NCBI GenBank assembly: GCA_958366945.1
Contig: CATXCY010000001.1
Coordinates: forward strand, 118,496-182,495
Reading direction: 5' to 3'
Length of the DNA: 64,000 bases
Source of the DNA: an uncultured bacterium
GTDB lineage: Bacteria > Vulcanimicrobiota > Xenobia > Xenobiales > Xenobiaceae
Positions 40,492 to 64,000 of the stretch are shown here, one piece after another. The stretch's first letter is position 1, and the number at the start of each line of letters is the position of its first letter. The notes below the pieces were generated by a model that saw only the letters and a program-made list of their open reading frames with translations, did no database searches and was not told the DNA's origin. Both the position numbers and the translations under genes were made by a program.

Positions 40492-40584
40492 AAAAAAAAG
40501 AGAAGCTTTTCAGTAAACGCTGTCTAACTAAATCAGCCTCTCATTCTATTTAACCGCCTTCCCTATGAAGGACAGTGTTTTAAG

Positions 40585-40661
40585 TGGTAGCCCGGACGGG
40601 AATCGAACCCGTGATCTCCGGCTTGAAAGGCCAGCGTCCTAAACCGCTAGACCACCGGGCC
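40585..40661 (-). tRNA. tRNA-Glu (anticodon TTC).
   Basis: GGCCCGGTGGTCTAGCGGTTAGGAC, anticodon loop CTTTCAA, GGTTCGATTCC, CCA. Confidence 0.85.
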
Positions 40662-40693
40662 ATGTACACTTTTCTTGAACACCAAGGGGGTCT

Positions 40694-40769
40694 TGGTGGG
40701 CCCACCTGGATTCGAACCAGGGACCAATTAGTTATGAGCCAACTGCTCTAACCGCTGAGCTATGGGCCC
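40694..40769 (-). tRNA. tRNA-Met (CAT). Elongator type; a lysidine tRNA-Ile2 cannot be excluded.
   Basis: GGGCCCATAGCTCAGCGGTTAGAGC, anticodon loop CTCATAA, GGTTCGAATCC, CCA. Confidence 0.8.
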
Positions 40770-40965: not shown

Positions 40966-42261
40966 CTAAAAGTTGATGTAAAGCTGAGCGCTTTGCAAAG
41001 CTGCCAAGTGATTTTCCAAGCCAAAATAGTTTTCACAAGCGCGGGAAATTTGCTTAAGCTTATAGCGGCGCTTGGGAGCAACAAATACATAAAAGCGCCA
41101 TAAATTGCGATGCTTATCACGCAAGACATTTACTTCCGGCAATTGCAAAGAAGCTAATGAGCACGGTTCTTCTGGCCCTATTTTAACCAGAACTTCAGCT
41201 TCTTTTAATTGCATATTGGCTGAAGGGCAGTAAATAATTAGCTCTCCGGGATCTAGACCAAGATCGCTAATCAACCTCTCTTCGGCTTCTTTGCGATATT
41301 CAGCTTTATTGTGGAAACGCTCTACCAGCTGGGCTTCCTTTTCATAGCCAATGCGTCTAGTTAAAACGTAAGCACGCTTGTAAATTTTGCGCGAGCTAAA
41401 AGCTTTATAAATGCTAGCTATCAAAGGATCATCGCCAAAGTGCCACTCAATATAGGCTAAAAGACGCTCGTCGCCCAAAGGCAAAATATCTTTAAGTTTC
41501 AGCCCAAGTTCTAAAGCACGTTCTACAATTCTGGAGATCATAGCTCCGGAAGCGGTTTTGGTATGGTGGAAGAAAACGCGTTCAGTTAAAAAGTAACGTA
41601 AGCGCAATAAGTTAATAACTTCAGAAACTAAATCTTCTCTAACTACGCCATTTTTTTGGCAATCTAAATACAAGTGGCTGCCGTCAGTGCGCAAGCTGCG
41701 CATAATGCGCTTATCATATTTCTGAGAAAGACCACAAAAAAAAGCGTCGCGAGCTAAATAATCCAAAAGATCGGCACAAAACATACCGCCAATAAGCTCA
41801 CTTTGCCAAGCTTTTTCAGCCTGCCCGTGAAGAATAGCTTTTACAAGTTCGGCTATAGCCAATTTATGAAGTATTTTGCCTAGCTCAGTGCGCTTATTAA
41901 AAAAAAGCTCAAAACGCTCTGGTGAATCGTGGCGGCTAAAAATGCGCCGTTCATCTTCTACGGTATGACCAAAGGGAATATGACCTACATCATGCAAAAG
42001 AGCAGCCGCACTCACAGCTAACCTTTCGAAATTGCTTATCTTGGTACCAAATTCTTCCAAAATTTTTAGAAGAGTAAGAGCCAAGTGGCAAGTCCCCAGG
42101 CTATGCTCAAAACGAGTGTGAACTGCTCCAGGATAAACTAAAGAAGCCGTACCTAATTGCTTTATGCCTCGAAGCCTTTGCATTTGAACTGTATCTATAA
42201 GTTCAATTAACTCATCAGGCAAAAAAATATCTTCGTGTACAGGATCTCTGAATATTTTCAA
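40966..42261 (-). CDS. HD-domain dNTP triphosphohydrolase-like protein (SAMHD1/dGTPase family).
   Basis: N-terminal DPVHEDIFL...QRLRGIKQLG...YPGAVHTRFEHSLGTCHLA...LLHDVGHIPFGHTVED, the characteristic HD motif. 431 aa. Confidence 0.8.
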   Translation of the reverse strand: MKIFRDPVHEDIFLPDELIELIDTVQMQRLRGIKQLGTASLVYPGAVHTRFEHSLGTCHLALTLLKILEEFGTKISNFERLAVSAAALLHDVGHIPFGHTVEDERRIFSRHDSPERFELFFNKRTELGKILHKLAIAELVKAILHGQAEKAWQSELIGGMFCADLLDYLARDAFFCGLSQKYDKRIMRSLRTDGSHLYLDCQKNGVVREDLVSEVINLLRLRYFLTERVFFHHTKTASGAMISRIVERALELGLKLKDILPLGDERLLAYIEWHFGDDPLIASIYKAFSSRKIYKRAYVLTRRIGYEKEAQLVERFHNKAEYRKEAEERLISDLGLDPGELIIYCPSANMQLKEAEVLVKIGPEEPCSLASLQLPEVNVLRDKHRNLWRFYVFVAPKRRYKLKQISRACENYFGLENHLAALQSAQLYINF

Positions 42262-42264
42262 AGT

Positions 42265-42744
42265 TTATTCTTCGTCTTCTCCGTCATCTTCTTCGCTAAG
42301 CTCACCAGAGTAGATAGACACTTCACGGATCATACAATCTAACTGAGCCGCGCTAAGCTGACTAACTGGACATGCTGCTTGTAAGATAACATATTCGCAA
42401 TCGTCGCCCTTACTAATCATTAAGCGACTATAAATGAGGTTCTGGTCGCAGAAGCGCAATAATTCAGCCGGATCCAAATCTTCGCTGTATTCACCAATTT
42501 CAGCTTCTACTACTACAGCTTCGGCTTCATGGTACATGGCATCGTCGACATCGACCATGAAAACATCTACTTCAGGCTGATCATCCTGATAAACGCGGAA
42601 AACATTTTCTTCCGGAATCCATTCGGCTTCCATGTGCTCATCATGATATTTGGCGTAAACAATGAGCTCATCCATTAAATTGTTAAGATATTCCGGGGCC
42701 TCTAAAGACTCTTCTTCAGGATTTACAGCTTCAGGATCGGTCAT
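42265..42744 (-). CDS. Small highly acidic protein (YbjN-like?), translationally coupled upstream of the HD-domain gene.
   Basis: 159 aa with pI clearly acidic (many D/E; C-terminus EEDDGEDEE). Only a 3-nt gap to the HD-gene start, so likely an operon. Confidence 0.45.
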   Translation of the reverse strand: MTDPEAVNPEEESLEAPEYLNNLMDELIVYAKYHDEHMEAEWIPEENVFRVYQDDQPEVDVFMVDVDDAMYHEAEAVVVEAEIGEYSEDLDPAELLRFCDQNLIYSRLMISKGDDCEYVILQAACPVSQLSAAQLDCMIREVSIYSGELSEEDDGEDEE

Positions 42745-42962: not shown

Positions 42963-44042
42963 TTACTTGTCGAGACCCTGAGGGGCAAAGTCATTTTCAG
43001 CAGTCAAACGCACTGGCTCTTTGGTAATATCGCCGATATTGCCAAAGTGCAAATCAGTCATTTGTTCAAGCTGCTTCTGAGGAACCTGATAAACGCTGAA
43101 TTTATCGGGATCGAAGCCAGAAATACCTAAAGTATGATCGCTCTCAATGATGTCTTTCTGAGAAAGTACAAAGGAAGCGCTCTTTAAGTTGCCAGTTTTC
43201 TCGTCAGCCCAAACTACAGTTTTGAAGAACTGCATAGGAATCTGAACGGGCTTCTTCATGGCTCCGTTGTTGGTGAACTTAGGATCGTCATCAGAGAAGA
43301 TGGGGCCGGTGATTACGGTCATCTTCTGATTACCGCTGGTAGCACTGTCGAGAACATGATTTTCCAAGTTTAACCATTCTTTTTGGTTTAAACCGGCATG
43401 CTGTAAGGTAGCGTTGCAATAGCTAAAAGTATCATTATTAGCTTGTTTGGCCTCTTTACCCCAGCAAGGATCTAAGCGGCGCACCATGTGGCCCTTATCG
43501 ATATCATTGTTCCTGTAAGCTTCGTTGCCCAACTGGCATTCGCGGGGAATACGACCATCGAGTTCCCATTTGCCGCTGCGGGGCAAGTCTTGGTGAGTAG
43601 CACCATCGATATTGGAAATGGTGTAGAAGCACTGTTTGCGCTCACCATTCATAACGATGGAGAAGTGAGTATAAGGTAAAACATACTCGCCAGGCTTGTC
43701 GGTACGCATAGCCACTTTGTCTTTAATGGAACTGCCCAACTCGGGAAGAGGAAGCTCTTTACCTAAGAAAGAGCTGTCATAACCGGCACGATTGCGATAC
43801 ATGTTGACGCCGTCGCCTTGGACAGTGATGGGGCCCTCAGCCTTTTGGGCTTGAGCACTGGCGTGGCTCTTGAAAAGTCTGCCGGCGCTGGCAAAGGCTT
43901 GCTCGTTAGCGAAGTCTCTGTTGTCGTCATGGACGAACACATCCTTGCTGCTTCCCTGGAAGCCTTCGGGACGGCTGACAGAATTTTCAATCATCTGAGG
44001 ATTGTTAAATAACGAGCTGCTAGAGATACTGTTAATTCCCAT
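42963..44042 (-). CDS. DNA/RNA non-specific endonuclease (EndoG/NucA family), paralog 1 of 6.
   Basis: Start refined to ATG 44042 (MGINSISSSS) with GGAG upstream; tracker ORF extends to 44159. Catalytic DKGHMVRRLDPCWG (DRGH-type His-Me finger) and NATLQHAGLNQKEWLNLENHV (Mg-binding Asn/Glu). Confidence 0.8.
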   Translation of the reverse strand: MGINSISSSSLFNNPQMIENSVSRPEGFQGSSKDVFVHDDNRDFANEQAFASAGRLFKSHASAQAQKAEGPITVQGDGVNMYRNRAGYDSSFLGKELPLPELGSSIKDKVAMRTDKPGEYVLPYTHFSIVMNGERKQCFYTISNIDGATHQDLPRSGKWELDGRIPRECQLGNEAYRNNDIDKGHMVRRLDPCWGKEAKQANNDTFSYCNATLQHAGLNQKEWLNLENHVLDSATSGNQKMTVITGPIFSDDDPKFTNNGAMKKPVQIPMQFFKTVVWADEKTGNLKSASFVLSQKDIIESDHTLGISGFDPDKFSVYQVPQKQLEQMTDLHFGNIGDITKEPVRLTAENDFAPQGLDK

Positions 44043-44496
44043 TTTTATCTGCTCCATTACCGAAGCCTGCTTCGCCTTAAAGCAGGCTAAATTCCTGATT
44101 TTAAATGCCTTACACAGACAAAATATCTTCAGGCGTGACATGCTCCTTAAGCTTAACAAAATTTGCTAAACTTAAGGCTTCTGAGATGTTGATGAACCGC
44201 ACCTCCAAAAAATTTGAAAGTACAAGCTCTATCTTAGTAGGTGATGTCCCACCTACATGCTGCTCAGCTTCAAAGTTCCCTTGTATGCAATGATACAAAG
44301 AAAAATATTGGAGCTAAGTAACGTTTTATATAATCTTTTCCTCCCCTTTCTCCTAAATATTAGCAGTCAATTAGGCAAAAATGTTCCTTTTTTATGAACT
44401 TTTAGTTAACGTATCAAAAAATGAGCCGTCTGCTGCAAAATATTTTTACAGCGCGGCCCATCTATATTTACCTAATATGTAGCTAAGTTAAATACT

Positions 44497-45603
44497 TTAG
44501 CTGAGTTTAGGAGCGTAATTGTTGTCAGCGCTTAAGCACATAGCTGTTTCGGTAATATCGCCGATATTGCCAAAGTGCAAATCAGTAAGACGCTCGACTT
44601 CTTTCTGCGGCACTTGATAAATTTTAAATTCACCGGGATCGAAGCCTTTGCCCTTATTCTTCTTAGCTTTAAAGAGAGAGCTATCATTATTGATAATATC
44701 TTTTTGAGAGAGAATAAAGGAAGCGCTCTTTAAGGTGCCTTTTTCATTCCAAACTACAGTTTTGAAAAACTGTAAAGGAATTTGGGTAGCTTCTTTCATG
44801 GCGCCTTTATTGTCGAACTTCGGATCGTCATCGGCAAAAATAGGGCCAGTAATTACAGTCATTTTTTGACCGGAACCGCGAGCTGAATTTAAAACGTGAT
44901 CTTCTAAACGCAACCACTCTTTTTTATTGAGACCAGCGTGTTGTAAAGCGGAGTTGCAATAGCTGAAAGTATCCTCACCAGCTAACTTGGCATTTTGGCC
45001 CCAACAAGGATCTAAGCGACGCACCATGTGACCGCGATCAATGCTATTTCCGCCGTAAGCTTCGTCACCAAGCTGATATTTGCGAGGAATGCGGCCATCT
45101 AAAGTCCAGGTACCTTCACGTTTTACGCTGCGAGAAGCTCTACCATCAATATTACAAATAGCGTAGAAGCATTGCTTGCGCTCTTTATTCATTACTACTG
45201 AATAGTTGGTGTAAGTAAGCTCACACTCACCAGGCTTATCGGTGCGCATAGCCACTTTATTCTGAATGGAAGAACCTAAGCCGGGCAAAGGAAGTTCTAC
45301 GCCCAAGAAAGATTTGTCGTAGCCGTTGCGCCCCTCAAACATGCTGACAGGCTCGCCTTGCACGGAGATCAAAGAAGAAGCGGAATTAGTTTGTTGAGCT
45401 TCGCGACCACAACTTTGGAAAAGACGACCAGCCTTGGCGAATTCTTGCTCTTTAGTAAATTGAGCGCTCTCGTCACGAACAAAAACATCTTTGCCCGTAC
45501 CCTGAAAGCCTTCAGGACGGCTGACACTATTCTCAGAGACCTGAGTGTTAATATATAAAGAATTGCTGGAAATGCTGCCTATTCCCACTGAAAATAGCTC
45601 CAT
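44497..45603 (-). CDS. EndoG/NucA-family nuclease, paralog 2.
   Basis: MELFSVGIGSISSNS...; DRGHMVRRLDPCWG; NSALQHAGLNKKEWLRLEDHVL. GGGGGGAG Shine-Dalgarno. Confidence 0.8.
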   Translation of the reverse strand: MELFSVGIGSISSNSLYINTQVSENSVSRPEGFQGTGKDVFVRDESAQFTKEQEFAKAGRLFQSCGREAQQTNSASSLISVQGEPVSMFEGRNGYDKSFLGVELPLPGLGSSIQNKVAMRTDKPGECELTYTNYSVVMNKERKQCFYAICNIDGRASRSVKREGTWTLDGRIPRKYQLGDEAYGGNSIDRGHMVRRLDPCWGQNAKLAGEDTFSYCNSALQHAGLNKKEWLRLEDHVLNSARGSGQKMTVITGPIFADDDPKFDNKGAMKEATQIPLQFFKTVVWNEKGTLKSASFILSQKDIINNDSSLFKAKKNKGKGFDPGEFKIYQVPQKEVERLTDLHFGNIGDITETAMCLSADNNYAPKLS

Positions 45604-45643
45604 TGTTCTCCCCCCACTGTAATATATGCAAAGTTCTCTATTT

Positions 45644-45683
45644 CAAAAAAAGCTGCTCGACTTATTAAAATCGAGCAGCTTTC
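45644..45683 (-). terminator. Rho-independent terminator downstream of paralog 3.
   Basis: AAAGCTGCTCGA...TCGAGCAGCTTT flanked by an A-run (U-run on the minus strand). Confidence 0.55.
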
Positions 45684-45703
45684 TACTCAGCTAAAACAAA
45701 ATG

Positions 45704-46822
45704 CTAGCTTAACTTAGGAGCGTAATCGTTCTCGGCAGTTAAGCGCATAGGCTTCTCGGTGATGTCACCGATATTGCCAAAGTGCAAATCGGTCATTTGC
45801 TCGAGTTGCTTCTGAGGCACCTGGTAAACGCTGAAGCGGCCGGGATCTACACCCTTGCTCTTAAAGAGAGAGTGATCTTTATTGATAATGTCTTCCTGAG
45901 AGAGCACGAAAGAGGCGCTCTTAAGCTTGCCACCATCGTTCCAGACCACGGTCTTGAAGAACTTCATGGGGATCTGGGTAGCTTCTTTCATTCTGCCCTT
46001 GTTGTCAAACTTAGGATCGTTTTCAGAGAAGATCGGGCCAGTGATAACGGTAAGTTTCTGCTTTTCTTTGCCAGTAGTGGCGCTGTCCAAAACGTGGTTT
46101 TCTAAGCAGAGCCATTCTTTTTGGTTCAAAGCACCATGCTGCAAGGTGGCATTGCAATAGCTGAAAGTATCACGGCTGGCGCGCAGAGGATCGTCGCCCC
46201 AGCAAGGATCTAAGCGGCGCACCATGTGGCCCTTATCGATATTGTTGCCGCCATAAGCTTCGTTGCCCAACTGGTATTCACGAGGAATACGACCGTCGAT
46301 AGTCCAGTTGCCATCGCGCTTTACTTCCTGGTGGCTGTTACCGTCGATATTGCAAATAGCATAGAAGCACTGTTTGCGCTCTTTGTTCATTACTACGGAG
46401 TAGTTGGTGTAAGTGAGCTCGCTCTTGCCAGGCTCATCGGTACGCATAGCGACCTTGTCTTTAATAGAATCGCCCAAACCAGGTAAAGGAAGATCTACGC
46501 CCAAGAAAGACTTGTCGTAGCCGTTGCGACCTTCAAACATGTTGACGCTCTCGATATCGACACCGGAAGCGGCAGACATAATATTGGTTTGCTGAGTCTC
46601 CTCAGGATTGGCTTGAGGCTGAGCCTCGCGCTGGCAGCTTTGGAAAAGGCGACCGGCCTTAGCAAAATCCTGCTCTTTGACAAACTGAGCGTTATCATCG
46701 TGTACAAATACGTCTTTGCCAGTACCCTGGAAACCTTCAGGACGACGAATAGAGCTCTCAGAGATTTGAGTGTTAGTATATAAAGAACTACCAGAAATAC
46801 TTCCGATACCCATTGTGAACAA
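45704..46822 (-). CDS. EndoG/NucA-family nuclease, paralog 3.
   Basis: TTG start at 46822, or ATG at 46813 (MGIGSISGSS). DKGHMVRRLDPCWG; NATLQHGALNQKEWLCLENHVL. Confidence 0.8.
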   Translation of the reverse strand: MFTMGIGSISGSSLYTNTQISESSIRRPEGFQGTGKDVFVHDDNAQFVKEQDFAKAGRLFQSCQREAQPQANPEETQQTNIMSAASGVDIESVNMFEGRNGYDKSFLGVDLPLPGLGDSIKDKVAMRTDEPGKSELTYTNYSVVMNKERKQCFYAICNIDGNSHQEVKRDGNWTIDGRIPREYQLGNEAYGGNNIDKGHMVRRLDPCWGDDPLRASRDTFSYCNATLQHGALNQKEWLCLENHVLDSATTGKEKQKLTVITGPIFSENDPKFDNKGRMKEATQIPMKFFKTVVWNDGGKLKSASFVLSQEDIINKDHSLFKSKGVDPGRFSVYQVPQKQLEQMTDLHFGNIGDITEKPMRLTAENDYAPKLS

Positions 46823-46972
46823 CCCCTAGTTTTCTCCCCACCCCAGACCTTGTTTACCAATAAATACTACAGAATTTAAAATACTATTTGTGCACAAAAT
46901 TGTAACAAGCTTGTCAAATTTTCATTTAAAGTCGCATTTTTTAGTTTGTAGCTTATGATTAAGCTCCAGAAC

Positions 46973-47020
46973 AAAAAAAAGCGCCTTGCTCTTTATTTTT
47001 TCAAGAGCAAAACGCTTCTC
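46973..47020 (-). terminator. Rho-independent terminator downstream of paralog 4.
   Basis: GCGCCTTGCTCTT...AAGAGCAAAACGC with an A8 run. Confidence 0.55.
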
Positions 47021-47038
47021 ATCTAAATGCTCAGTTCC

Positions 47039-48226
47039 TTACTTATCTAAACCTACGGGAGCATAGTTATTTTCTGCAGTCAAACGCACGGCTTTTTTGC
47101 AAGTATCGCCAATGTTGCCGAAATGCAAATCGGTAAGGCGCTCAACTTCTTTTTGAGGCACTTGATAGACATCGAAACGGCCAGGCTCAAAACCGCCTTT
47201 AAGCTTAATGGTGTCATCTTCTTTGATAATATCTTCCTGGGAAAGAATGAAAGAAGCGCTCTTTAAATTGCCAGTTTTTTCGTCGGCCCAAACGACTGTT
47301 TTGAAGAATTTCATAGGAATCTGGGCAGGCTCTTTCATCTTGCCATTATTGTCGAACCAAGGGTCGTTCTCGGAGAAAATAGGGCCAGTAATTACACTCA
47401 TCTTTTGACCGCTGGCAGAATTGAGCACATGGTCTTCTAAAGCGAGCCATTCATCTTGGTTTAAACCGGCATGTTGCAAAGAAGCGTTGCAATAGCTGAA
47501 AGTGTCACGGCTAGCTAATTCGGCATTGCTACCCCAGCAAGGATCTAAGCGACGTACCATGTGGCCCTTGTCGATATTGTTGCGTTTGTAAGCTTCATCG
47601 CCCAATTGGTATTCACGAGGAATGCGGCCATCTAAAGTCCAGTTGCCGGAACGCTTAACAGCGTGCTGGCTATTACCGTCGATATTGCAAATAGCGTAGA
47701 AGCACTGCTTGCGCTCTTTATTCATTACTACGGAGTAGTTGGTGTAAGTAAGCTCGCTCTCGCCGGGCTTGTCAGTACGCATAGCCACTTTATCTTGAAT
47801 GGAAGAGCCAAGTTGAGGCAAAGGAAGCTCGGTACCTAAGAAGTTTTTGTCGTAGCCATTGCGACCATTAAACATACTGACTTTGTCGCCTTGAATTGTA
47901 ACTACACCAGAAGCGGAATCAGCTTGCTGAGATTCGCGATTCCCACTTTGGAAGAGACGACCAGCTTTAGCAAAGTCCTGCTCTTTAACAAACTGAGCAT
48001 TATCATCATGAACAAAGACATCTTTGCCAGTACCCTGGAATCCTTCAGGACGGCTGATAGAGCTTTCAGGAACCTGATTATTTATATACAAAGAGCTGCC
48101 AGAAATACTTCCGATACCCACAGTAAACGACTCCGATTTTTTCCCCGCCCCAAAACTTTCTAACTCAGTAGATACTACAGAATTTAAACGACTGGTTAGG
48201 CACAAAAATGTAACAAAATTGACCAA
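47039..48226 (-). CDS. EndoG/NucA-family nuclease, paralog 4.
   Basis: Likely true start is GTG at 48121 (VGIGSISGSS) with GGAG 11 nt upstream; the tracker ORF begins at 48226. DKGHMVRRLDPCWG; NASLQHAGLNQDEWLALEDHVL. Confidence 0.8.
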   Translation of the reverse strand: MVNFVTFLCLTSRLNSVVSTELESFGAGKKSESFTVGIGSISGSSLYINNQVPESSISRPEGFQGTGKDVFVHDDNAQFVKEQDFAKAGRLFQSGNRESQQADSASGVVTIQGDKVSMFNGRNGYDKNFLGTELPLPQLGSSIQDKVAMRTDKPGESELTYTNYSVVMNKERKQCFYAICNIDGNSQHAVKRSGNWTLDGRIPREYQLGDEAYKRNNIDKGHMVRRLDPCWGSNAELASRDTFSYCNASLQHAGLNQDEWLALEDHVLNSASGQKMSVITGPIFSENDPWFDNNGKMKEPAQIPMKFFKTVVWADEKTGNLKSASFILSQEDIIKEDDTIKLKGGFEPGRFDVYQVPQKEVERLTDLHFGNIGDTCKKAVRLTAENNYAPVGLDK

Positions 48227-48235
48227 AAGAAAAAT
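48174..48235 (-). promoter_or_regulatory. Conserved promoter-like element upstream of the nuclease paralogs.
   Basis: Plus-strand motif TACTACAGAATTTAAA...TTAGGCACAAAAATGTAACAA...TTGACCAAAAG. Homologous copies occur at 46865-46925 and 49587-49650. Sits between each terminator and the next start codon. Confidence 0.4.
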
Positions 48236-48276
48236 AAAAGCGCTCTGGCTTCAATATGAAACCAAAGCGCTTATTT
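48231..48276 (-). terminator. Rho-independent terminator downstream of paralog 5.
   Basis: AGCGCTCTGG...CCAAAGCGCT with an A-run. Confidence 0.55.
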
Positions 48277-48318
48277 AAGCGTGCCGACTACAATGCGGCT
48301 TCCGCTTAGTGATATTTA

Positions 48319-49434
48319 CTAGGCTAACTTAGGAGCGTAGTCATTCTCAGCGGTCAAGCGCATAGGCTGCTCGGTGATGTCGCCAATATTGCCAAAGTGC
48401 AAATCGGTGAGGCGCTCAACTTCTTTCTGAGGCACCTGGTAAACTTCGAAGCGATCGGGATCGAAACCGCCCTTAGCACCTAAGGAACCGTCACCATTGA
48501 TAATGTCTTCCTGAGAAAGGATGAAGGAAGCGCTCTTGAGCTCTTTGCCTTCGGTCCAAACCACAGTCTTGAAGAACTTCATAGGAATCTGGGCCGGTTC
48601 TTTCATCTTGCCATGGTTGTTGAAGGAAGGATCGTCTTTGGAGAAGATAGGGCCGGTAATGACGGTCATCTTCTGGCCTTTAGCAGAATTGAGAACGTGG
48701 TCTTCGAGCTGGAGCCACTCTTTCTGGTTTAAACCAGCGTGCTGTAAGGAAGAGTTGCAATAGCTGAAAGTGTCATGGCTAGCCAAATCGGCGTTTTTGC
48801 CCCAGCAAGGATCTAAGCGGCGAACCATGTGGCCTCTGTCTATATTGTTGTCGGCATAGGCTTCGTTGCCGAGCTGGTATTCGCGAGGAATACGACCATC
48901 GAGGCTCCAGCTGCCGGAACGCTTAACATCGCGATGAGTAGTGCCATCAATGTTGCAAATGGCATAGAAGCACTGCTTGCGCTCTTTGTTCATTACTACG
49001 GAGTAGTTGGTGTAAGTAAGTTCGCACTCGCCGGGCTTGTCGGTGCGCATAGCCACTTTGTCTTTAATGGAATCGCCAAGGCCGGGCAAAGGAAGCTCTA
49101 CACCCAAGAAGGCTTTGTCGTAACCATTGCGGCCTTCGAACATGCTTACGCCGTCGGGCTTAACTTCGCGGGGACCTTTAGGACCGTTAGGGCCTTGAGC
49201 GCCATCATTCCTGCGGCGATTCTTTCTCTTGGCGATTTCGAAACTGTTGTCGTTTACGCTCTGGAAGAGGCGACCAGCTTTAGCAAACTGCTGCTCTTTG
49301 GTGAGCTGAGCGTCGTCGTCATGAACGAATACGTCTTTGCCAGTGCCCTGGAAACCTTCAGGACGTTTGATAGAGCTCTCAGAAACCTGAGTGTTAGTAT
49401 ATAAAGAATTACCAGAAATGCTTCCGATACCCAT
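48319..49434 (-). CDS. EndoG/NucA-family nuclease, paralog 5.
   Basis: MGIGSISGNS...; DRGHMVRRLDPCWG; NSSLQHAGLNQKEWLQLEDHVL. Unique basic linker (RKNRRRNDGAQGPNGPKGP). Confidence 0.8.
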   Translation of the reverse strand: MGIGSISGNSLYTNTQVSESSIKRPEGFQGTGKDVFVHDDDAQLTKEQQFAKAGRLFQSVNDNSFEIAKRKNRRRNDGAQGPNGPKGPREVKPDGVSMFEGRNGYDKAFLGVELPLPGLGDSIKDKVAMRTDKPGECELTYTNYSVVMNKERKQCFYAICNIDGTTHRDVKRSGSWSLDGRIPREYQLGNEAYADNNIDRGHMVRRLDPCWGKNADLASHDTFSYCNSSLQHAGLNQKEWLQLEDHVLNSAKGQKMTVITGPIFSKDDPSFNNHGKMKEPAQIPMKFFKTVVWTEGKELKSASFILSQEDIINGDGSLGAKGGFDPDRFEVYQVPQKEVERLTDLHFGNIGDITEQPMRLTAENDYAPKLA

Positions 49435-49649
49435 GTTTTACAATTCCTATCCCTTTAATTAGGCTTTGCAGAAAACTCTGGTAGTCACAAAAACTGTCAA
49501 AGCTTTCAACGAATCGAGACAAGCCAGCTACTATCTAAAACGCAGACAACAGATACGCTTGCTCAAAAAACATTAACTGAACAGATACTACAGAATTTAA
49601 AAGTCTAATTAGGCAAAAAAATGTTACAACTTGGCCAAAAAACTTTTTA

Positions 49650-49696
49650 AAAATAAAATGCGCTCCAAAGCCAAAGCTTTTGAAGCGCATTCAATT
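49650..49696 (-). terminator. Rho-independent terminator downstream of paralog 6.
   Basis: AATGCGCT...GAAGCGCATT with an A-run. Confidence 0.55.
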
Positions 49697-49716
49697 AGCT
49701 ATTTTATATATAAGAT

Positions 49717-50772
49717 TTAGTTTAACTTGGGAGCGTAGTCGTTCTCAGCGGTCAGGCGCATAGGCTGCTCGGTGATGTCGCCGATGTTGCCAAAGTGCAA
49801 GTCGGTGAGACGCTCAACTTCTTTCTGAGGCACCTGGTAAACTTCAAAGCGATCGGGATCGAAGCCACCTTTAATGCCCAAAGAGCTGTCGTTGTTGATG
49901 ATATCTTCCTGAGAGAGGATGAAGGAAGCGCTCTTGAGCTCTTTGCCATCATTCCAAACTACAGTTTTGAAGAATTTCATGGGGATCTGAGTAGGCTCAT
50001 CCATCATACCGTTGTTATCAAACTTTGGATCGTCTTTGGAGAAGATGGGGCCGGTAATAACGGTCATTTTTTGACCTTTAGCAGAACCGAGCACGTGATC
50101 TTCAAGTTTGAGCCATTCTCTCTGGTTCAAGCCACCATGTTGCAAAGCGGCGTTGCAATAAGTGAAGGTGTCACGGCTAGCCAATTCGGGATCCTTACCC
50201 CAGCAAGGATCTAAGCGGCGAACCATGTGGCCCTTGTCAATATTGTTATCTTTGTAGGCTTCGTTGCCCAACTGGTACTCGCGAGGAATACGACCATCGA
50301 TAGACCAGCTGCCGGAACGTCTGACATTGCGATGGCTGGTGCCGTCAATATTGCAAATAGCGTAGAAGCACTGCTTGCGCTCTTTGTTCATAACGACAGA
50401 GAAGTTAGTATAGGTGAGTTCGCTCTCACCAGGTTTGTCGGTGCGCATGGCAACTTTGTCTTTAATGGAAGAGCCGAGCTCAGGTAAAGGAAGTTCGGTG
50501 CCCAAGAAGTTTTTGTCGTAGCCATTGCGGCCTTCATACATACTGACGCCTTCGATTTCAATTTCGGAAGCGGCATTGACGTGTCCGGCCTGAGTGCTCT
50601 GGAAGAGACGACCAGCTTTAGCGAATTGCTGTTCTTTGGTGAACTGAGAGCTTTCGTCGCGAACGAAGACATCTTTGCTAGTGCCTTGGAAACCTTCGGG
50701 ACGCTTAACGTCGCTCTGCTGGATATTATTAAAGGCAGTAAAAGAACTGCTGGATATGCTACCTAAACCCAT
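49717..50772 (-). CDS. EndoG/NucA-family nuclease, paralog 6.
   Basis: MGLGSISSSS...; DKGHMVRRLDPCWG; NAALQHGGLNQREWLKLEDHVL. Confidence 0.8.
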   Translation of the reverse strand: MGLGSISSSSFTAFNNIQQSDVKRPEGFQGTSKDVFVRDESSQFTKEQQFAKAGRLFQSTQAGHVNAASEIEIEGVSMYEGRNGYDKNFLGTELPLPELGSSIKDKVAMRTDKPGESELTYTNFSVVMNKERKQCFYAICNIDGTSHRNVRRSGSWSIDGRIPREYQLGNEAYKDNNIDKGHMVRRLDPCWGKDPELASRDTFTYCNAALQHGGLNQREWLKLEDHVLGSAKGQKMTVITGPIFSKDDPKFDNNGMMDEPTQIPMKFFKTVVWNDGKELKSASFILSQEDIINNDSSLGIKGGFDPDRFEVYQVPQKEVERLTDLHFGNIGDITEQPMRLTAENDYAPKLN

Positions 50773-57489: not shown

Positions 57490-57533
57490 AAAAAAAGCAG
57501 AACACTATAACTATATAGTGTTCTGCATTTTTA
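57490..57533. terminator. Bidirectional terminator.
   Basis: AAAAAAGCAGAACACTATA...TATAGTGTTCTGCATTTTT. Confidence 0.55.
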
Positions 57534-57555: not shown

Positions 57556-59304
57556 CTAGAACGAAATAAATATGGGCAAAGAGATCGCTTTCTTTTCGCG
57601 TCTAGCTTTATTAAGTTCTTGCGAGCACAACAAAGGATAAGTTAACCTTACAGCTTGGAAAAGATCGTTTTCAGCTTGGTTTAGACTATCTAAAAACAGA
57701 CCCGTCAAACTGCTATCCGAATTGCCTTTACTCGAATCAGCCGTGCCATAAATTAAAGCAGTACAAGAGCTACTATCTAATTGGCTGGCAATTAAAACAT
57801 TGTTTTTATCTAATTGGCTGGGTAAATTCTTCACTTGCGAAGATTTTACGTCCCAAATAATCATAAAGCGAGCACCGGGCAAAGATTGCCGATATTGACG
57901 TAAATAGTCGGAAGTTATGCTAAAATTCTCTTTTTCATCACTACTGACGAAAGCTAATTTTTTACCGTCAAAGTTAAAATTGCCAATTAAATAGAGCACT
58001 ACTAAATCGGAAGAATTACAAGAAGCTCTTATATTTTCCAAAGATTTCTTAATATTTTCGGCTTTGGCCTCTGCTCCAGGCAAAGTTTTAACGCTGAAAC
58101 CGCGCTCCATAAAAGCTTGACGCACTTGCATAGATTTCTGACTGTTAGAAACATCACTTAAATTGTAGTTGGGACCGACTATTAAAGTTCTGGTCTTCAT
58201 TCCTTGGTCAGAAGTAACAGCGTATAGTTCAAAGGATTTTTTAAGTTTGCGCCCTTCCAAATCGGCTACATCTATTTCAATTTTGTTAGTTCCCGGCTTA
58301 AGATCTACACAAAGATCTATTTCTAAATCGGCAATTTGCAAACCTAAAGGAGTATTCCAAAGATTTTCTCCGTTAATAGTTAAGGATGCACTGAGAATAC
58401 CGGCCGGAGCATCTATAGTACCACGCAAAGGAACTTGCTTAACGCTAGATATTTTATTTCCTATGGGATCAACAATATTGACAAAAGGAGAGCGATCGTC
58501 TTTAGCTATTTGCAAATCGTACGTTTTATTAACTAAGCGACGAAAACCAGCTAAGCCATAGATCGATTCACGCATATCTAAAACAACTTCCAAAGAGAGA
58601 ATATCACCCTTGAGAGTAGCATTCTTTATGGAACTTATGGAGTTGTAACAAATAAAATTAGGCGAAGGTAGATCCAAGGCCGCACTCGTCTGTTCATCTA
58701 GGCTAAAAGCTTGGAAAGAGCTCAAAGGATAAAGTGCTCCTATTAAACGCTGGCCACGCTTAATTTCCAAACCGGAATTGCCATCTAAATAGATGCGCTC
58801 CTCTACTCTATCGCCATCTATATCTTTTCTATAAAGCAAGCGCTTCGTTTTATAAGCTTGCGATTTGTAGCTAAGCCACGATTCATCAGTAACTTTTACG
58901 CTGACATTGCCATTTTCAGGAAGCTGACGGTTGAATTTTGCTCTGGCTAACCAGTTAAGATACTGGCATCCTCCGGAACGCAAGTCCCAGCTTATGTACT
59001 TTTTATCCTTGTCTTTAGAATTTAAAGAGCTTTGGGCTATTTTGTACAGTCCTTCCAATTCGGCAATTTCATAAGCTTGTTTCTTGGCCTCTTCGTTATT
59101 CAAGCCACTAGGCAAACCTACTTTAGAAATAAAACTTATTCTGCTCTTTTTTAAGTCTACAGCTGCAGTAGGAGCCGGATTGGGATCTTGGCCGTCTTCT
59201 TGAGCTGAAGTAGGCTGGACATTAGCCAATATAAATAAAAGAACTACTGACAGAGAAAGCAACAGACACAAACGACTGCGCTCAGATAAACAATTTAATA
59301 ACAT
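57556..59304 (-). CDS. Secreted protein of unknown function.
   Basis: Signal peptide LLLSLSVVLLFILANVQPTSAQ. 582 aa. C-terminal third has weak, probably degenerate caspase-like (C14) resemblance. Confidence 0.4.
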   Translation of the reverse strand: MLLNCLSERSRLCLLLSLSVVLLFILANVQPTSAQEDGQDPNPAPTAAVDLKKSRISFISKVGLPSGLNNEEAKKQAYEIAELEGLYKIAQSSLNSKDKDKKYISWDLRSGGCQYLNWLARAKFNRQLPENGNVSVKVTDESWLSYKSQAYKTKRLLYRKDIDGDRVEERIYLDGNSGLEIKRGQRLIGALYPLSSFQAFSLDEQTSAALDLPSPNFICYNSISSIKNATLKGDILSLEVVLDMRESIYGLAGFRRLVNKTYDLQIAKDDRSPFVNIVDPIGNKISSVKQVPLRGTIDAPAGILSASLTINGENLWNTPLGLQIADLEIDLCVDLKPGTNKIEIDVADLEGRKLKKSFELYAVTSDQGMKTRTLIVGPNYNLSDVSNSQKSMQVRQAFMERGFSVKTLPGAEAKAENIKKSLENIRASCNSSDLVVLYLIGNFNFDGKKLAFVSSDEKENFSITSDYLRQYRQSLPGARFMIIWDVKSSQVKNLPSQLDKNNVLIASQLDSSSCTALIYGTADSSKGNSDSSLTGLFLDSLNQAENDLFQAVRLTYPLLCSQELNKARREKKAISLPIFISF

Positions 59305-59319
59305 TTTGTATAATCGGCC

Positions 59320-60312
59320 TTAATCTTTAATTTTGTCCATATTTTTAAGTACGGCACGAATAAGTTTGCCTAAATCTGTTTGGGCATTTTCGGCGGCTTT
59401 CAAAACATCTTCATGATTGGTTATCGCATTAGAAGTGGACTTTTCGCCTTTCAGGGCAGGAATATCAGCAGGCACATCAGTTACACAAGAAAAGCCTAGC
59501 ACTTGCATACCGCTATAAACAGCCGCAATCACTTCAGGCACGGTAGACATGCCAACAACATCGGCTCCCATTAAACGGAGCATCTTACGTTCGGCTGGAG
59601 TCTCGTAAGAAGGGCCGAGCATAGATGCATAGACCCCTTCTTTTAAATTTATTTTTAACTTGCGAGCTTCATTTAAAGTAAGCTGACGCAAACTCGGAGT
59701 ATAAGCCGAGTTCATATCAAAAAAGCGCGGGCCTAATTTTTCGCTATTGGGGCCAACCATAGGATTAGAGCCCAAAAAATTAATGTGGTCTTTCAAAAGA
59801 ATAAGCTCACCTAAATAATGGCCCTGACTTATAGCACCAGAAGAGTTGCTAACTATCAAAGTTTTGGCTCCCAGAGCTTTGGCTACCAAAACCGGAAAGG
59901 CTACTTGGTTAATCTTATAGCCTTCATAGCAATGAACTCGTCCGCGCATCATTACTACCTTTTTGCCTTCCAAACGGCCAAAAACTAAAGAGCCAACGTG
60001 ACCTTCAACTGTAGAAACTGCAAATCCGGGAATGTCCCGATAAGAAATTTCAGTCTTATCCTCAGCCATATCAGCCAAAGAGCCCAAGCCGGAACCCAAA
60101 ATGATCATAATTTCAGGTTTAAAGTTAATTTTTTTGCTAAGGAAATCAGCCGCTTCACGCACTCTCTCTTCAGTTGTTTGTTGCTTGTCAGCCTGACATG
60201 CACGCAAGCAACAGTTAGAGCAAGAGGTCGACACTTCAGCTAAGCTGGGCAAAGCTGATGCCATTAGGCCTATTCCCAAAGTTAAAGATATAGCAATATT
60301 CCTAAAATTCAT
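59320..60312 (-). CDS. Purine nucleoside phosphorylase (PunA-type, PNP family 2) with an N-terminal signal-peptide-like extension.
   Basis: IILGSGLG...GHVGSLVFGRLEGKKVVMMRGRVHCYEGY is typical of trimeric PNP. The first 45 aa are MNFRNIAISLTLGIGLMASALPSLAEVSTSCSNCCLRAC. Confidence 0.8.
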   Translation of the reverse strand: MNFRNIAISLTLGIGLMASALPSLAEVSTSCSNCCLRACQADKQQTTEERVREAADFLSKKINFKPEIMIILGSGLGSLADMAEDKTEISYRDIPGFAVSTVEGHVGSLVFGRLEGKKVVMMRGRVHCYEGYKINQVAFPVLVAKALGAKTLIVSNSSGAISQGHYLGELILLKDHINFLGSNPMVGPNSEKLGPRFFDMNSAYTPSLRQLTLNEARKLKINLKEGVYASMLGPSYETPAERKMLRLMGADVVGMSTVPEVIAAVYSGMQVLGFSCVTDVPADIPALKGEKSTSNAITNHEDVLKAAENAQTDLGKLIRAVLKNMDKIKD

Positions 60313-60491
60313 AACTACAATTTCCCAGCCCTTATCTTTAATAATTTCGTTACCAAAACTTTAAATTTTCGCTTTATAAACGCAAAAATCCATACAATTT
60401 TCGTTTATTGTCTCTTCAATTCAGCCTTCCTGTTTGCCTTGTCAAGACCTTGAGTGAAGGAAAAAGCTTGCTAAAATCTATTTAAGAAAAA

Positions 60492-61100
60492 ATGTTCATT
60501 AAATTTCTCAATTGTTTAGGAAGATATATAGAATTTTTGCTTACCGGTCAGAGTGATTTTAAAATTACCACTTCTGAATTTGAAAAAGCAGAAATTATCG
60601 ATAATGAAGTGCAAGCTAAAATTGCTTTACAAGAAGTGCGCCTGTATTTAAAAAAAGCCTTTTCTATAAATTTAACTAATCCGATAGTCATAAAACTTGG
60701 CCGCCCCCAAACTTGGGATTGGAAGTTGCGCCTAACTTCCGGATTCACTCATATTGGCAACTATTGCTGTGAGCGAATGGGAGAAAATTCAGCCCATATG
60801 ATAACTATTGTTCCTGGGCTAGAACGCATAAAATTTAAATCAGTACTTTGTCATGAACTAACTCACGCTTTTCAAGCTGAGCATGAAATGCTACGCAATT
60901 TCAAAGGCTACAAAGAAGGCATGGCCCGCTGGGTAGAATATCATTTTTTATTGGACAACCAACAAGGAGCAGAAGCTAAGAAAATTAGCGGCTTTGGCCT
61001 GGTATTGTTGGGCAACATGCTCAATAAAATTTTACTATATGAGAAAGAGCATGGACGAGCCGCTACCTGTCGTTGGCTAGCTTCCATGGATAATAATTAA
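60492..61100 (+). CDS. Putative zinc metallopeptidase (HExxH motif).
   Basis: LCHELTHAFQAEH in a 202-aa protein. Family not assignable by eye. Confidence 0.4.
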   Translation: MFIKFLNCLGRYIEFLLTGQSDFKITTSEFEKAEIIDNEVQAKIALQEVRLYLKKAFSINLTNPIVIKLGRPQTWDWKLRLTSGFTHIGNYCCERMGENSAHMITIVPGLERIKFKSVLCHELTHAFQAEHEMLRNFKGYKEGMARWVEYHFLLDNQQGAEAKKISGFGLVLLGNMLNKILLYEKEHGRAATCRWLASMDNN

Positions 61101-61179: not shown

Positions 61180-64000
61180 TTAACGAACGTTGCGACGAGA
61201 ACGACGCACCACTCCTGAGGAACGAGTGCCAGAGCGACGCCCGGAACGAGCAACACCAACATTACCGCTTCCTCTGTAAGAATCGACTGAAGAAGCAGAG
61301 ATACGGCGGCGAGAGCGACTTCCAGAAGAAGTGCGACGGCCATATCCTCTGGAAGATCCATTACCAGACGTGCTGTAATTACCGTCTGCATAAAGATCGT
61401 CAGCAGCATAATCTCCAGAAGCCGATTGATCGTAAGTTCCTAACTCAGCATAGTTGCTTTCGTTATAAGATCCATAAACAGGATACTCAAACTTCTCATC
61501 TTCGAGCTCAGGAGCATGGCCATAATACCTAACATAATCATCATAAGTATCGGCATCATCATAATGGCTCATATAGTCACTTCTGACATGCTCATTGTAA
61601 GCCGAAGAATCGTAGGCACTGCTCAGACGATAATCGTAGTTGGTGACAGCCATACTCTTAGCGGCACCTCTAGAGCGACGGCGGGAAGTAGTTTTTGCAT
61701 TTTCTTCAACCGCTTTGCTAGAAGAAGGAGAAGAAGTTGACTCGAACTTTTCAGCAGTAGAAGTTTCTTCTTTAGCTTGTGTATTCTTATTCACTTCACG
61801 GCGACGAGACTTACGCGGACTATAATCGTCACGGCGGTTTCTCGGAGAGCTAAAAGCTCGATCATAACTGCGACGAGCAGCTTCTATATCAGCTTCTTCC
61901 AAATCGGAGGCATGACTACCGTTATTGAAGCGACGGCGATAAATAGAGCTTACAACTGGCTCATCAACCTCTACAGAAGACTGTCCCTCTACTTTAGGAA
62001 GAGCCAAAGCTTGTTCTATTTGCTCTTCGCTCATGCCATTAGCTGAAGCGGAAATTTCGGCAATAGCGTCAACTTCAGCGGAAGGATCCGCCTTAGGAGC
62101 AGCAGTCTCAGTTTCGTGAGCAGCTTCTACTTTAGTTGTAGTATCAGCCTCAGGCTCGATCACAGATTCCGCTTGAGCAACAACTTCTTTCACTCCGGAA
62201 TTATCTACAATGTTGGAAGATGTATTTTCAAATTTATCATCCTCAACAGTAGACACACTCTGTTCGGCAGCTTCTGTTTCTTCTGCAGGCTCAGGTGCAA
62301 CTTCTGCACGACGAGCACGGCGGCGACGGCGCGTAGGAGAAGTTTCGGATTTTACTTTAGCTTCAACTTCTTTGGCAAAATCACGTTCTGTATCAGGAGC
62401 GTTTGTAGACTCCGGCTCACCCAAGACATCTTCTACAGCAGAAGTAATAGCTCTAATTTGAGCGCATACCTTCTCTTGAGCTGATACAGAAGGGGCTTCC
62501 TCTTCACGAGTAGATACAGACTTATTGCGAGTGCGACGGGAACGTACACTGTGATGAGCAGAAGTACCACGCAAAGGAGTCATTTCAAACTCGGCACGTT
62601 CCTGCGGAGTCATATTCTGATAATAAGCTTGCATCTCAGCACTGATATTGCGCCGATTGTCTCTAGCAGTAGCGGTTGCAAGTTGCTCTTTCTTTTCAGG
62701 TGCAGAAATAGCGCTACGTTTTTCTACAGTTTTGCTATTTTCAATAGAAGCGCTTTCTTCCTGACGACGATTGCGGCGATTACTCTCATTGCTAGAGCGT
62801 CTGGTACTCTCTTCAGCCTTTTCCTTATTTTCTCTGGAAGACTGCTTTTCCGGCTGGTGAGTAGGCTCAAAAATTTCATAAGTTTGACGCATACTGGCCG
62901 GTTGGCGGCGTGAAATGGAGAATTTGCGAACTTCAACAGGACGTAATTCATCAGCCAAACCATCTATTCCGAAGTAACGACCGATGCGACGCACCGCTTC
63001 ATCTAAACGAGAATCACGGAAAGAATTGGTAAGTTCACGGAAACGAACTACACGTTGACGCAAAGAAGAATCATCTAAGTAAATAACAAACTGAGCGTCG
63101 GAGTGGCTGGCAGCTTCCCAAGCATTGCCCTCTCCAGAATTAGGATAAGCCAATTCGGCATAAATGCCAGCTCTACGTAAGGCATACAACACAGGCAAAA
63201 GCAAAGACACAGCTGCTTGGCTACTGCCAGCTAAACATACATCCGATTGCTTCTCAATATTGGGAACCAAGTTGGCTTCTCGCACAGCTCTTAAAGTCAT
63301 ATCCAAATCGACGGCACAATCGACCGCAGGAATATCGCGACCTCCTAAGAGGCGAGAAAGTTCGTCACAACGGCCGCCGAAACTGAGCACGTTGCGACCG
63401 CAGCTAATCTGGAAAACCGTGCGATTATAACACTCTACATCTGGTACCAAGAGAGGAGATAAGCGATAAGAAACCTTAAGTTCGTCTAAATAAGCACGTA
63501 CAGCTTCAAAATGTTCGCGGCATTCAGGGCAAAGGTAGCCGAAAATAGAAGGAGCAACTTGAGACAACTCGCGGCAGCACTTTTCTTCACAACCCATAGT
63601 CCAAAGAGGATGAGTGCGATAACGATGGTGGCATTTAGGACAAAGCTCACCACTGCGGCGAGAGAAATAATCATAAAGGCCTTGCTGATATTCAGCACGA
63701 CATTTTTTACATCCCAAAGAGTTCAACTGTACTTTTAAGTCGCTCAATCCCAAAGCATTAAAGAAATCATAAGCGATCATCAGAGCTTCAACATCGAGAC
63801 TGGGCAAAATAGAGCCTACAGCTCCCACTCCAAAGCGATGGCTCTGTACAGCCGATTGCTCACGCCCTTTAGGAGCGGCAAATACAGGAGCTAAATAATA
63901 AAGTTTGGCCGGCTCACCATTTCTAGAAATGGGCAAATTTTCATCATTTATAGCTCTAATCATGGGCACAAGCATATTGGCGCGCATGGCAAAACGATGA
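61180..64000 (-). CDS. HisRS/HisZ-like class II aaRS-like core with Cys-rich insertions, fused to a long Arg/Ser/Glu-rich low-complexity C-terminal region. 5' end truncated by the window edge.
   Basis: The N-terminal part aligns to HisRS: AKLYYLAPVF.., LNSLG..Y, FGGRCDEL (~GGGRYDGL). Motif 2 is degenerate. The reading frame stays open upstream of the tracker Met at 63987 (..HRFAMRANMLV), so the gene continues beyond 64000. Downstream are ~580 aa of R/S/E/A-rich sequence (RRRRARRAE..., SRSRRRISASS...). Confidence 0.6.
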   Translation of the reverse strand, partial: HRFAMRANMLVPMIRAINDENLPISRNGEPAKLYYLAPVFAAPKGREQSAVQSHRFGVGAVGSILPSLDVEALMIAYDFFNALGLSDLKVQLNSLGCKKCRAEYQQGLYDYFSRRSGELCPKCHHRYRTHPLWTMGCEEKCCRELSQVAPSIFGYLCPECREHFEAVRAYLDELKVSYRLSPLLVPDVECYNRTVFQISCGRNVLSFGGRCDELSRLLGGRDIPAVDCAVDLDMTLRAVREANLVPNIEKQSDVCLAGSSQAAVSLLLPVLYALRRAGIYAELAYPNSGEGNAWEAASHSDAQFVIYLDDSSLRQRVVRFRELTNSFRDSRLDEAVRRIGRYFGIDGLADELRPVEVRKFSISRRQPASMRQTYEIFEPTHQPEKQSSRENKEKAEESTRRSSNESNRRNRRQEESASIENSKTVEKRSAISAPEKKEQLATATARDNRRNISAEMQAYYQNMTPQERAEFEMTPLRGTSAHHSVRSRRTRNKSVSTREEEAPSVSAQEKVCAQIRAITSAVEDVLGEPESTNAPDTERDFAKEVEAKVKSETSPTRRRRRARRAEVAPEPAEETEAAEQSVSTVEDDKFENTSSNIVDNSGVKEVVAQAESVIEPEADTTTKVEAAHETETAAPKADPSAEVDAIAEISASANGMSEEQIEQALALPKVEGQSSVEVDEPVVSSIYRRRFNNGSHASDLEEADIEAARRSYDRAFSSPRNRRDDYSPRKSRRREVNKNTQAKEETSTAEKFESTSSPSSSKAVEENAKTTSRRRSRGAAKSMAVTNYDYRLSSAYDSSAYNEHVRSDYMSHYDDADTYDDYVRYYGHAPELEDEKFEYPVYGSYNESNYAELGTYDQSASGDYAADDLYADGNYSTSGNGSSRGYGRRTSSGSRSRRRISASSVDSYRGSGNVGVARSGRRSGTRSSGVVRRSRRNVR

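Follow-up and report, generated by a model that had tools for sequence, protein, structure and literature searches.

The stretch of DNA analyzed here (64,000 nt of contig CATXCY010000001.1, assembly GCA_958366945.1, positions 118,496–182,495 of the forward strand; hereafter the window) comes from an uncultured bacterium whose closest named relatives are metagenome-assembled genomes (MAGs) of Candidatus Bruticola sp. (UBP9), found in gut and rumen and belonging to the class Xenobia of the phylum Vulcanimicrobiota (formerly Eremiobacterota). The minus strand of the window carries a gene for a purine nucleoside phosphorylase (PNP), here termed the long PNP, which is an open reading frame (ORF) of 330 amino acids (aa) with an N-terminal extension. 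Next in the same direction comes the gene for a 582-aa protein of secreted type, the partner, and on the other side a divergent gene encodes a protein of 202 aa that has an HExxH motif (CHELTHAF). PNPs are generally regarded as cytoplasmic enzymes. For the long PNP we favor, with a probability of roughly 0.68, another placement: it would be a second PNP, exported by the Sec pathway to the periplasm for purine scavenging, export and activity both being predicted from the sequence.

Translation of the ORF gives MNFRNIAISLTLGIGLMASALPSLA|EV, then STSCSNCCLRACQ with four Cys, and then ...TTEERVREAADFL. This is identical to what the initial annotation of the stretch had quoted when it described a PNP core behind a signal-like segment and a four-Cys spacer; that annotation did not state the strand, and it missed that the gene is a paralog, that an Asn of the active site is changed to Asp and that the gene is paired with that of a secreted partner. 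The canonical PNP core extends from about residue 48 to residue 330, with about 45 aa of extension lying N-terminal to the canonical N-terminus. The protein scores 350.2 bits with the NCBIfam model NF006054 (cutoff 218, aa 46–324), 312.8 bits with TIGR01700 (cutoff 293.35), 315.1 bits with TIGR01697 (cutoff 197.1) and 161.8 bits with Pfam PF01048 (PNP_UDP_1, aa 68–323), and it passes the curated PunA-type family cutoff. PNPs of solved structure in the PDB align from query residue ~48 on (E about 1e-76), and in the AlphaFold2 (AF2) monomer model (mean predicted local distance difference test, pLDDT, 81; predicted template modelling score, pTM, 0.80) the core is confidently modeled as a PNP fold. 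By its sequence, the long PNP is a PunA-type, trimeric-type PNP. The residues equivalent to S33, H64, R84, H86, Y88, E201, M219, S220 and H257 of the human enzyme are kept in all long forms, and because the core is in addition under strong purifying selection, catalysis appears to be retained. The core is accordingly predicted to be catalytically competent.

Asn243, the residue that specifies 6-oxopurines in human PNP, is replaced in the long form. The window protein and all signal-bearing forms of the Xenobia-related group, among them P0143 and P0023/L004, which are more distant, read SCVTD at this place, and the signal-less sisters read SCVTN. In addition, human Ala116/Ala117 correspond to Ser-Ser in the long forms, and the loop before the equivalent of His257 has 20 residues in the long form, compared with 10 in the short paralog described below and 13 in human PNP. 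In mammalian PNP, N243D alone moves the specificity toward adenosine. The human double mutant E201Q:N243D gains activity on adenosine-type substrates and prodrugs (PMC2799393). Many signal-less PunA-type PNPs from Gemmatimonadota, Zixibacteria, Planctomycetota, Hydrogenedentota and others (L012–L087) have SIITD or SIVTD at the corresponding site and make up a PNP subclass that is widespread.

The extension is a constant property of the close homologs. Proteins from 100% down to 55% identity measure 314–356 aa and all carry it, apart from two shorter database calls (P0002 and P0011); canonical PNPs of other phyla measure about 274 aa and do not. When the DNA of ten orthologous loci was compared with the window, the upstream 45–80 codons were found free of stops in every ortholog, and the open frame and the signal-like pattern are retained in 13 further long forms (11 of them orthologs at 54–94% identity), which are related to one another and do not count as independent sequences. 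Each locus keeps a long-form start codon at this position, either ATG or GTG; it is ATG in the window and in L001, L002, L003 and L005, and GTG in L006 and L007. Directly upstream of it lies a conserved 5′ leader, AGATAAGGGCTGGGAAATTGTAGTT, whose consensus AGATAAGGGCTGG(G)AA(A)TTGT is shared by the window clade and Ca. Bruticola, though the remaining intergenic DNA has diverged; in L002, a canonical GAGGAGG precedes the long-form ATG by 7 nt. The possibility of a riboswitch or another known RNA in the leader was discarded, the only match being a chance-level one to 2dG-II (16.7 bits vs. 60) inside the coding region. A promoter scan found promoter-like sites to be no commoner than in shuffled sequence.

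Ratios of nonsynonymous to synonymous substitution rates (dN/dS; Nei–Gojobori method, close pairs) were 0.05–0.09 for the core, 0.12–0.43 for the signal segment and 0.23–0.59 for the linker, values that rest on small counts and for which distant pairs are saturated. By this measure, the extension is under protein-level constraint, weaker than that of the core. In the AF2 model, residues 1–42 have pLDDT below 50 and are detached from the folded core. Taken together, the comparisons argue that the extension is real and translated as part of the long PNP.

The beginning of the extension has the character of a Sec-type signal peptide, MNFRNIAISLTLGIGLMASALPSLA, as was judged from hydropathy, rule-based checks and comparison across 14 long forms. 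The n-, h- and c-regions claimed in the initial annotation are borne out as a pattern in all 14, export itself being a prediction. In the window protein, R4 is followed by 21 uncharged residues and by P-S-L-A, with Ser at −3, Ala at −1 and Glu at +1. One to three basic residues occur among the first eight in 13 of the 14 long forms (the exception, P0013, is probably 5′-truncated); all have an uncharged stretch of 12–22 residues and small residues at −3 and −1 (SxA, AxA, VxA or GxS), and the +1 residue is E, Q, D or T. The sequence of the segment diverges among the long forms while this pattern stays, which is how signal peptides usually evolve. The Kyte–Doolittle peak over 11 residues is 2.22, next to 2.26–2.81 for other evident signal peptides of the window and 3.01 for one more, and the evidently cytoplasmic enzymes of the window have no comparable hydrophobic N-terminal stretch. 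The site SALPSLA|E is similar to sites of other exported window proteins, AALPLSVQA|A and SALPAAAQ|T. A basic residue before and an acidic one after the hydrophobic stretch predict an N-in/C-out orientation.

Two other types of signal were considered and rejected. A lipoprotein signal does not fit: a lipobox is missing, and the most N-terminal Cys, residue 31 in the context T-S-C, stands six residues beyond the predicted cleavage site; true lipoboxes (LFAGC, VIGC) occur elsewhere in the window. A twin-arginine (Tat) signal does not fit either: the n-region has a single Arg (MNFRN), and the orthologs have a single K or R or KK, RR being found in none. The phylum is diderm: its sole member in culture is enclosed by an inner membrane, a thin layer of peptidoglycan and an outer membrane bearing lipopolysaccharide (PMC9758169), so that Sec export would take the protein at least to the periplasm. 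The window also encodes a signal-peptide protein with a sub-threshold match to outer-membrane beta-barrel proteins.

The signal segment is followed by a flexible linker, EVSTSCSNCCLRACQADKQQTT, rich in Cys. Of the 358 linker residues in the 14 long forms, 29 are Cys (8.1%), vs. 0.7% of the core residues in the window protein, with a nominal binomial P of 1.7e-15 that is inflated by the kinship of the sequences. At least one linker Cys is present in 12 of the 14 and none in two; several forms have a CxxC (CSNC, CSGC, CHNC, CERC), and the Cys residues do not keep the same positions from form to form. Such unpaired-looking clusters of Cys, lying in a disordered segment, fit a place outside the cytoplasm where disulfides form; they may bond with each other inside the linker, cross-link the subunits of the trimer or tie the enzyme to the partner.

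The long PNP is not the only PNP of these genomes. A second one, of 276 aa and without extension, is found about 6 kb away in the six related loci whose sequence extends far enough (L001, L003, L006, L008, L009 and L010), set in an nrdR-punA-pdp cluster in which it adjoins a pyrimidine nucleoside phosphorylase, just beyond a HisS-like gene. By synteny, the window's own short PNP should lie just past coordinate 64000. This short form (e.g., L006:3157-3987, P0015/P0016) has the same catalytic residues as the long form and differs from it by the lack of an extension, Asn at position 243, the short loop and much slower evolution. The two Xenobia forms are 51–55% identical to each other; between the same pairs of genomes, short forms are 86–95% identical and long forms 58–76%, so that the long copy evolves faster. 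In a neighbor-joining tree of 266 columns, long and short Xenobia forms are sister groups, apart from the Gemmatimonadota-type PNPs. Transfer of the long form from the widespread “TD-type” PNPs of Gemmatimonadota and others was rejected on this basis, since the tree places it beside the short Xenobia paralog.

The long form is narrowly distributed. When GTDB was scanned with one genome for each species, only four genomes gave full-length matches: UBP9_UBA4705 (94% identity to the window protein), a Hadza gut MAG (91%), Ca. Bruticola (75%) and the rumen MAG RUG807 (54%), corresponding to L009, L008, L010 and L011. When the best 80 species-level loci were inspected for a hydrophobic extension, it was present in these four Xenobia-type genomes only.

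Each of the ten orthologous loci has, next after the long PNP gene and on its strand, a partner gene encoding 559–582 aa; in the window, a gap of 15 nt separates the two genes. No terminator-like site was found in this gap, the only convincing hairpin of the scan lying after the partner gene. The partner has a signal peptide (...NVQPTSAQ|ED), an alpha/beta N-domain, immunoglobulin (Ig)-like sandwiches and a C-terminal caspase-like domain. It has no Pfam or NCBIfam match, and only 16 homologs, all of this lineage, were found among 5.8 billion clustered proteins. The C-terminal domain has the caspase/hemoglobinase fold and differs from Peptidase C14 members (caspases, metacaspases, paracaspases) in lacking the catalytic His–Cys dyad: in the sequence alignment, the two positions hold Asn, Asp or Pro (after the strand ending at G441) and Lys, Gln or other residues, and no conserved Cys follows D485. 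This pseudo-caspase is probably a non-catalytic scaffold, as judged from its sequence. Directly after its signal peptide, the AF2-disordered residues 41–50 (PNPAPTAAVD) are invariant, a pattern that suggests a short docking motif. Cys113 and Cys560 of the partner are likewise invariant. In L004, a locus with a more distant signal-bearing PNP, the partner is missing.

On its other side, the long PNP gene adjoins the gene of the HExxH protein in eight loci (L001, L002, L003 and L006–L010); this protein gave only a sub-threshold match to the Pfam BSP peptidase family and reached no Pfam or NCBIfam family. Next to it, the HisS/HisZ-like protein matches the hisS model (159 bits vs. a cutoff of 287) over its first ~320 residues only and ends in a highly charged tail of about 600 aa rich in Ser, Arg and Glu; its synteny is kept in relatives, where its length varies between 859 and 1069 aa.

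The initial annotation had remarked that an exported PNP would suit an extracellular salvage scheme in which secreted nucleases deliver its substrates. The part of the scheme that concerns an exported PNP is supported by the comparative evidence; the steps before it are not supported. The six tandem Endonuclease_NS proteins of the window were rejected as Sec-secreted enzymes, as a Sec signal peptide is missing from each of them. All six instead begin with a conserved segment, MGIGSISxSSLY...RPEGFQGTGKDVFV, which may serve in non-classical secretion or in the delivery of effectors and passes into a variable linker. Among the window ORFs screened, of which not all were family-searched, neither an exported nucleotidase nor a transporter for nucleobases turned up. 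A complete extracellular chain from DNA to nucleoside to base is at this point a conjecture. Directly downstream of the last nuclease gene lies a very acidic ORF of 159 aa without a Pfam or NCBIfam match, a candidate nuclease inhibitor or immunity protein. Farther on are the gene of a cytoplasmic-type HD-domain protein, adjoined by three tRNA genes, and a methylthioadenosine phosphorylase (MTAP) equivalog; counting the short PNP expected past the window end, the latter is the third PNP_UDP_1-family gene nearby. Coordinates are collected in Table 1.

Table 1. Coordinates of the long PNP gene, its parts and other features of the window
Feature	Position	Strand	Basis or remark
MTAP equivalog	39364..40167	minus	335 bits vs. 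cutoff 306; cytoplasmic-type
Three tRNA genes	40418..40769	minus	Adjoin the HD-domain gene
HD-domain (dGTPase-like) gene	40966..42261		
Acidic 159-aa ORF	42265..42744	minus	Downstream of last nuclease gene
Six tandem Endonuclease_NS (PF01223) paralogs	42963..50772	minus	69–80% identical; D[KR]GH motif intact
Bidirectional intrinsic-terminator-like hairpin	57497..57526	.	13-bp stem; ends the PNP–partner operon and a convergent ThiF gene
Partner gene (582-aa secreted-type protein)	57556..59304	minus	Downstream of long PNP; predicted co-transcribed
Long PNP coding sequence (PunA-type, paralog)	59320..60312	minus	ATG-started ORF; NCBIfam, Pfam and PDB matches; AF2 core
Lengthened loop, Asp279 to His300 (codons 280–299)	59416..59475	minus	Alignments; pLDDT 54–67
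Asp279 codon (human PNP Asn243 equivalent)	59476..59478	minus	Alignment to human PNP
In-frame GTG, Val51 (...EERVREAADFL)	60160..60162	minus	Alternative start of the initial annotation; rejected
Flexible Cys-rich linker (codons 26–47)	60172..60237	minus	Four Cys including CxxC; AF2-disordered
Predicted Sec signal peptide, cleavage SLA|E by signal peptidase I (codons 1–25)	60238..60312	minus	Rules and 14 long forms
Conserved 5′ leader	60313..60337	minus	Directly upstream of long-form start; nearly invariant in six loci
Gene of 202-aa HExxH protein	60492..61100	plus	Divergent from long PNP
HisS/HisZ-like protein	61180..63987	minus	

Under the reading that we favor, translation would begin at the ATG at 60312, and the first 25 residues would act as a Sec signal peptide, probably cut by signal peptidase I after Ala25. 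The mature enzyme in the periplasm would then consist of a complete trimeric-type PNP core behind some 20 aa of flexible, Cys-rich linker able to form disulfides, and it would use periplasmic phosphate to split purine nucleosides or deoxynucleosides into the base and ribose- or deoxyribose-1-phosphate, supplying purine bases that can be imported. The Asn243-to-Asp change may shift or broaden the base preference to include adenosine-type substrates, and the enzyme may work with, or be held by, the co-transcribed secreted pseudo-caspase/Ig-like protein, the housekeeping role being left to the canonical cytoplasmic paralog of the nrdR-punA-pdp cluster. The long PNP thus probably cleaves nucleosides outside the cytoplasm. 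Going further, the long PNP and its partner might together form a hitherto undescribed extracytoplasmic nucleoside module, retuned to adenosine-type substrates, in which the enzyme is tethered or regulated by the partner through linker disulfides or the PNPAPTAAVD segment. With signal- or lipobox-bearing PNPs having arisen independently in other lineages too, purine phosphorolysis outside the cell could on this view be a way of salvage that gut bacteria have adopted repeatedly and that has been overlooked; all this we put forward tentatively, judging it somewhat doubtful.

That a familiar enzyme family occurs here in a compartment where it was not expected, and only in one uncultured lineage associated with the gut, is well supported by the comparative evidence but unproven. 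For the Xenobia, an uncultured class of gut bacteria, it gives a physiological hint. Export would place a phosphate-dependent step outside the cytoplasm and raise the matter of the fate of ribose-1-phosphate there. The long PNP is also a natural Asn-to-Asp specificity variant, which links known chemistry to an uncharacterised family of secreted proteins.

Other explanations of the locus have to be weighed. Should translation start at the in-frame GTG of Val51 or nearby, as the initial annotation had considered, the extension would not be made and the product would be an ordinary cytoplasmic PNP. The start of canonical PNPs aligns at Val51, the GTG comes after a run rich in purines (GAAGAGAGA), and the more distant orthologs L002, L003 and L005 have an ATG at the aligned position, the one from which P0011 was called. 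However, codon 51 is GTG in the window only; it is GTA (L009, L006, L007) or GTT (L008, L001) in the five closest relatives and cannot therefore be a conserved start. Every ortholog is extended and none starts at the GTG, the ATG of the distant orthologs being probably a relic of an ancestral start, which would account for the short database call of P0011. Taking into account that the purine run touches the GTG with no spacer, that the open upstream codons, the signal-like pattern, the start codon and the leader are all conserved, that close pairs give a dN/dS below 1 for the extension and that a separate cytoplasmic paralog is already present, the internal GTG was rejected as a start and a cytoplasmic product is considered highly improbable. 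If the extension is made, its hydrophobic segment might nevertheless stay uncleaved as a signal anchor, with residues ~5–25 tethering the PNP to the outer face of the inner membrane and the Cys-rich segment as a stalk. A stretch of 21 uncharged residues could span the membrane, AF2 predicts a short helix at residues 4–14, and the N-in/C-out charge pattern would suit an anchor. The peak hydropathy of this stretch is, however, below that of membrane helices of the window (~3.0) and near that of cleaved-type signals, and an anchor would need neither the Pro at −4 nor the small residues at −3 and −1 that most orthologs have; we regard anchoring as unlikely.

An exported long PNP could also serve an end other than salvage, e.g., the removal or conversion of extracellular adenosine- or inosine-type signals or of nucleoside toxins in the gut, or act as a binding or adhesion subunit together with the pseudo-caspase partner. 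Its strict pairing with a lineage-specific, scaffold-like secreted protein, the faster evolution of the long copy and the resemblance of the nearby nucleases to non-classically secreted effectors rather than digestive enzymes are in line with such a role, and in Borrelia the exported nucleosidase Bgp doubles as an adhesin (PMC7557402). Against it stand the full set of catalytic residues and the strong purifying selection on the core, and the locus indicates no specific signal or toxin substrate; we consider a non-salvage function quite unlikely. Several observations also speak against export for salvage, the reading that we prefer. The Shine–Dalgarno sequence of the long PNP is weak or oddly spaced (TAAGG ~17 nt and GGGAA 8 nt upstream), many window genes having AAGG or AGGA 7–11 nt upstream of the start, though this does not decide the matter; 21 uncharged residues are long for an h-region; and the PNP tree, built by neighbor joining, carries no support values. 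Asp243 also prevails in PNPs without a signal from Gemmatimonadota, Zixibacteria, Planctomycetota and others, and as such it marks a substrate-preference class, not export; what it would do to the specificity of the long PNP is extrapolated from mutants of the mammalian enzyme. To these are added the nucleases without Sec signals, the negative result for exported nucleotidases and nucleobase transporters among the ORFs screened, and the lack of an obvious fate for extracytoplasmic ribose-1-phosphate.

Compared with the PunA/mammalian-type PNPs (EC 2.4.2.1; PDB 8swu, 1vmk and human 1ula), the long PNP is 48–52% identical over the whole core and keeps all phosphate-, ribose- and base-contacting residues but one. 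Canonical members have no targeting sequence, whereas the long form adds a signal-like peptide of 25 aa and some 22 aa of Cys-rich linker, besides Asp at 243, Ser-Ser at 116/117 and a 20-residue loop instead of one of 10–13. NCBI labels these 328–330-aa proteins plainly as purine-nucleoside phosphorylase, and a full-text literature search retrieved no report of a bacterial PNP as exported, periplasmic, secreted or signal-peptide-bearing. A search of 1.84 billion cluster representatives yielded further signal-bearing PNPs from metagenomes, none of them characterised. P0143 and P0023/L004 combine a Sec-type signal with Asp at 243, the linker being free of Cys in the former and rich in Thr, Gln and Pro in the latter; P0214 has a lipobox (LTGC) and Asn at 243; and P0196 has a lipobox (LAAC), Cys at 243 (SCVTC) and a fused Y_phosphatase3 domain. 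Like the long form, all of them have a PNP core after a signal or lipobox, but they lack the Cys-rich linker. P0196 (L088:7307-9319), a predicted lipoprotein of 670 aa, occurs on about 14 metagenome contigs. In the neighbor-joining tree, the two lipobox-bearing proteins P0214 and P0196 cluster with a PNP of the Oscillospiraceae (Firmicutes), so that PNP export has apparently arisen more than once.

To our knowledge, the extracytoplasmic steps of nucleic-acid salvage known from bacteria, carried out by nucleases, 5′-nucleotidases and the nucleosidases of Borrelia, are hydrolytic. The Borrelia enzymes are the nearest analogue on record and the one precedent for export in the same superfamily. 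Borrelia burgdorferi has a cytoplasmic Pfs and two signal-peptide paralogs, Bgp (BB0588) and MtnN (BBI06), which are nucleosidases of methylthioadenosine and S-adenosylhomocysteine (MTA/SAH), Bgp being surface-located (PMC7557402). Bgp and MtnN belong to the MTAN subfamily and are hydrolases, whereas the long PNP would be a phosphorylase that needs phosphate and gives ribose-1-phosphate; its best matches are PunA-type models, MTAP-type models scoring 35–75 bits and no MTAN model matching. Borrelia is also of another phylum and has no partner gene of this kind. Both systems share the PNP_UDP_1 superfamily (PF01048) and the combination of a cytoplasmic paralog with one or more signal-bearing paralogs. 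The authors of the Borrelia work suggested that Bgp and MtnN may provide readily transportable adenine to the cells (PMC7557402), and the long PNP of the Xenobia would likewise supply a transportable purine base outside the cytoplasm.

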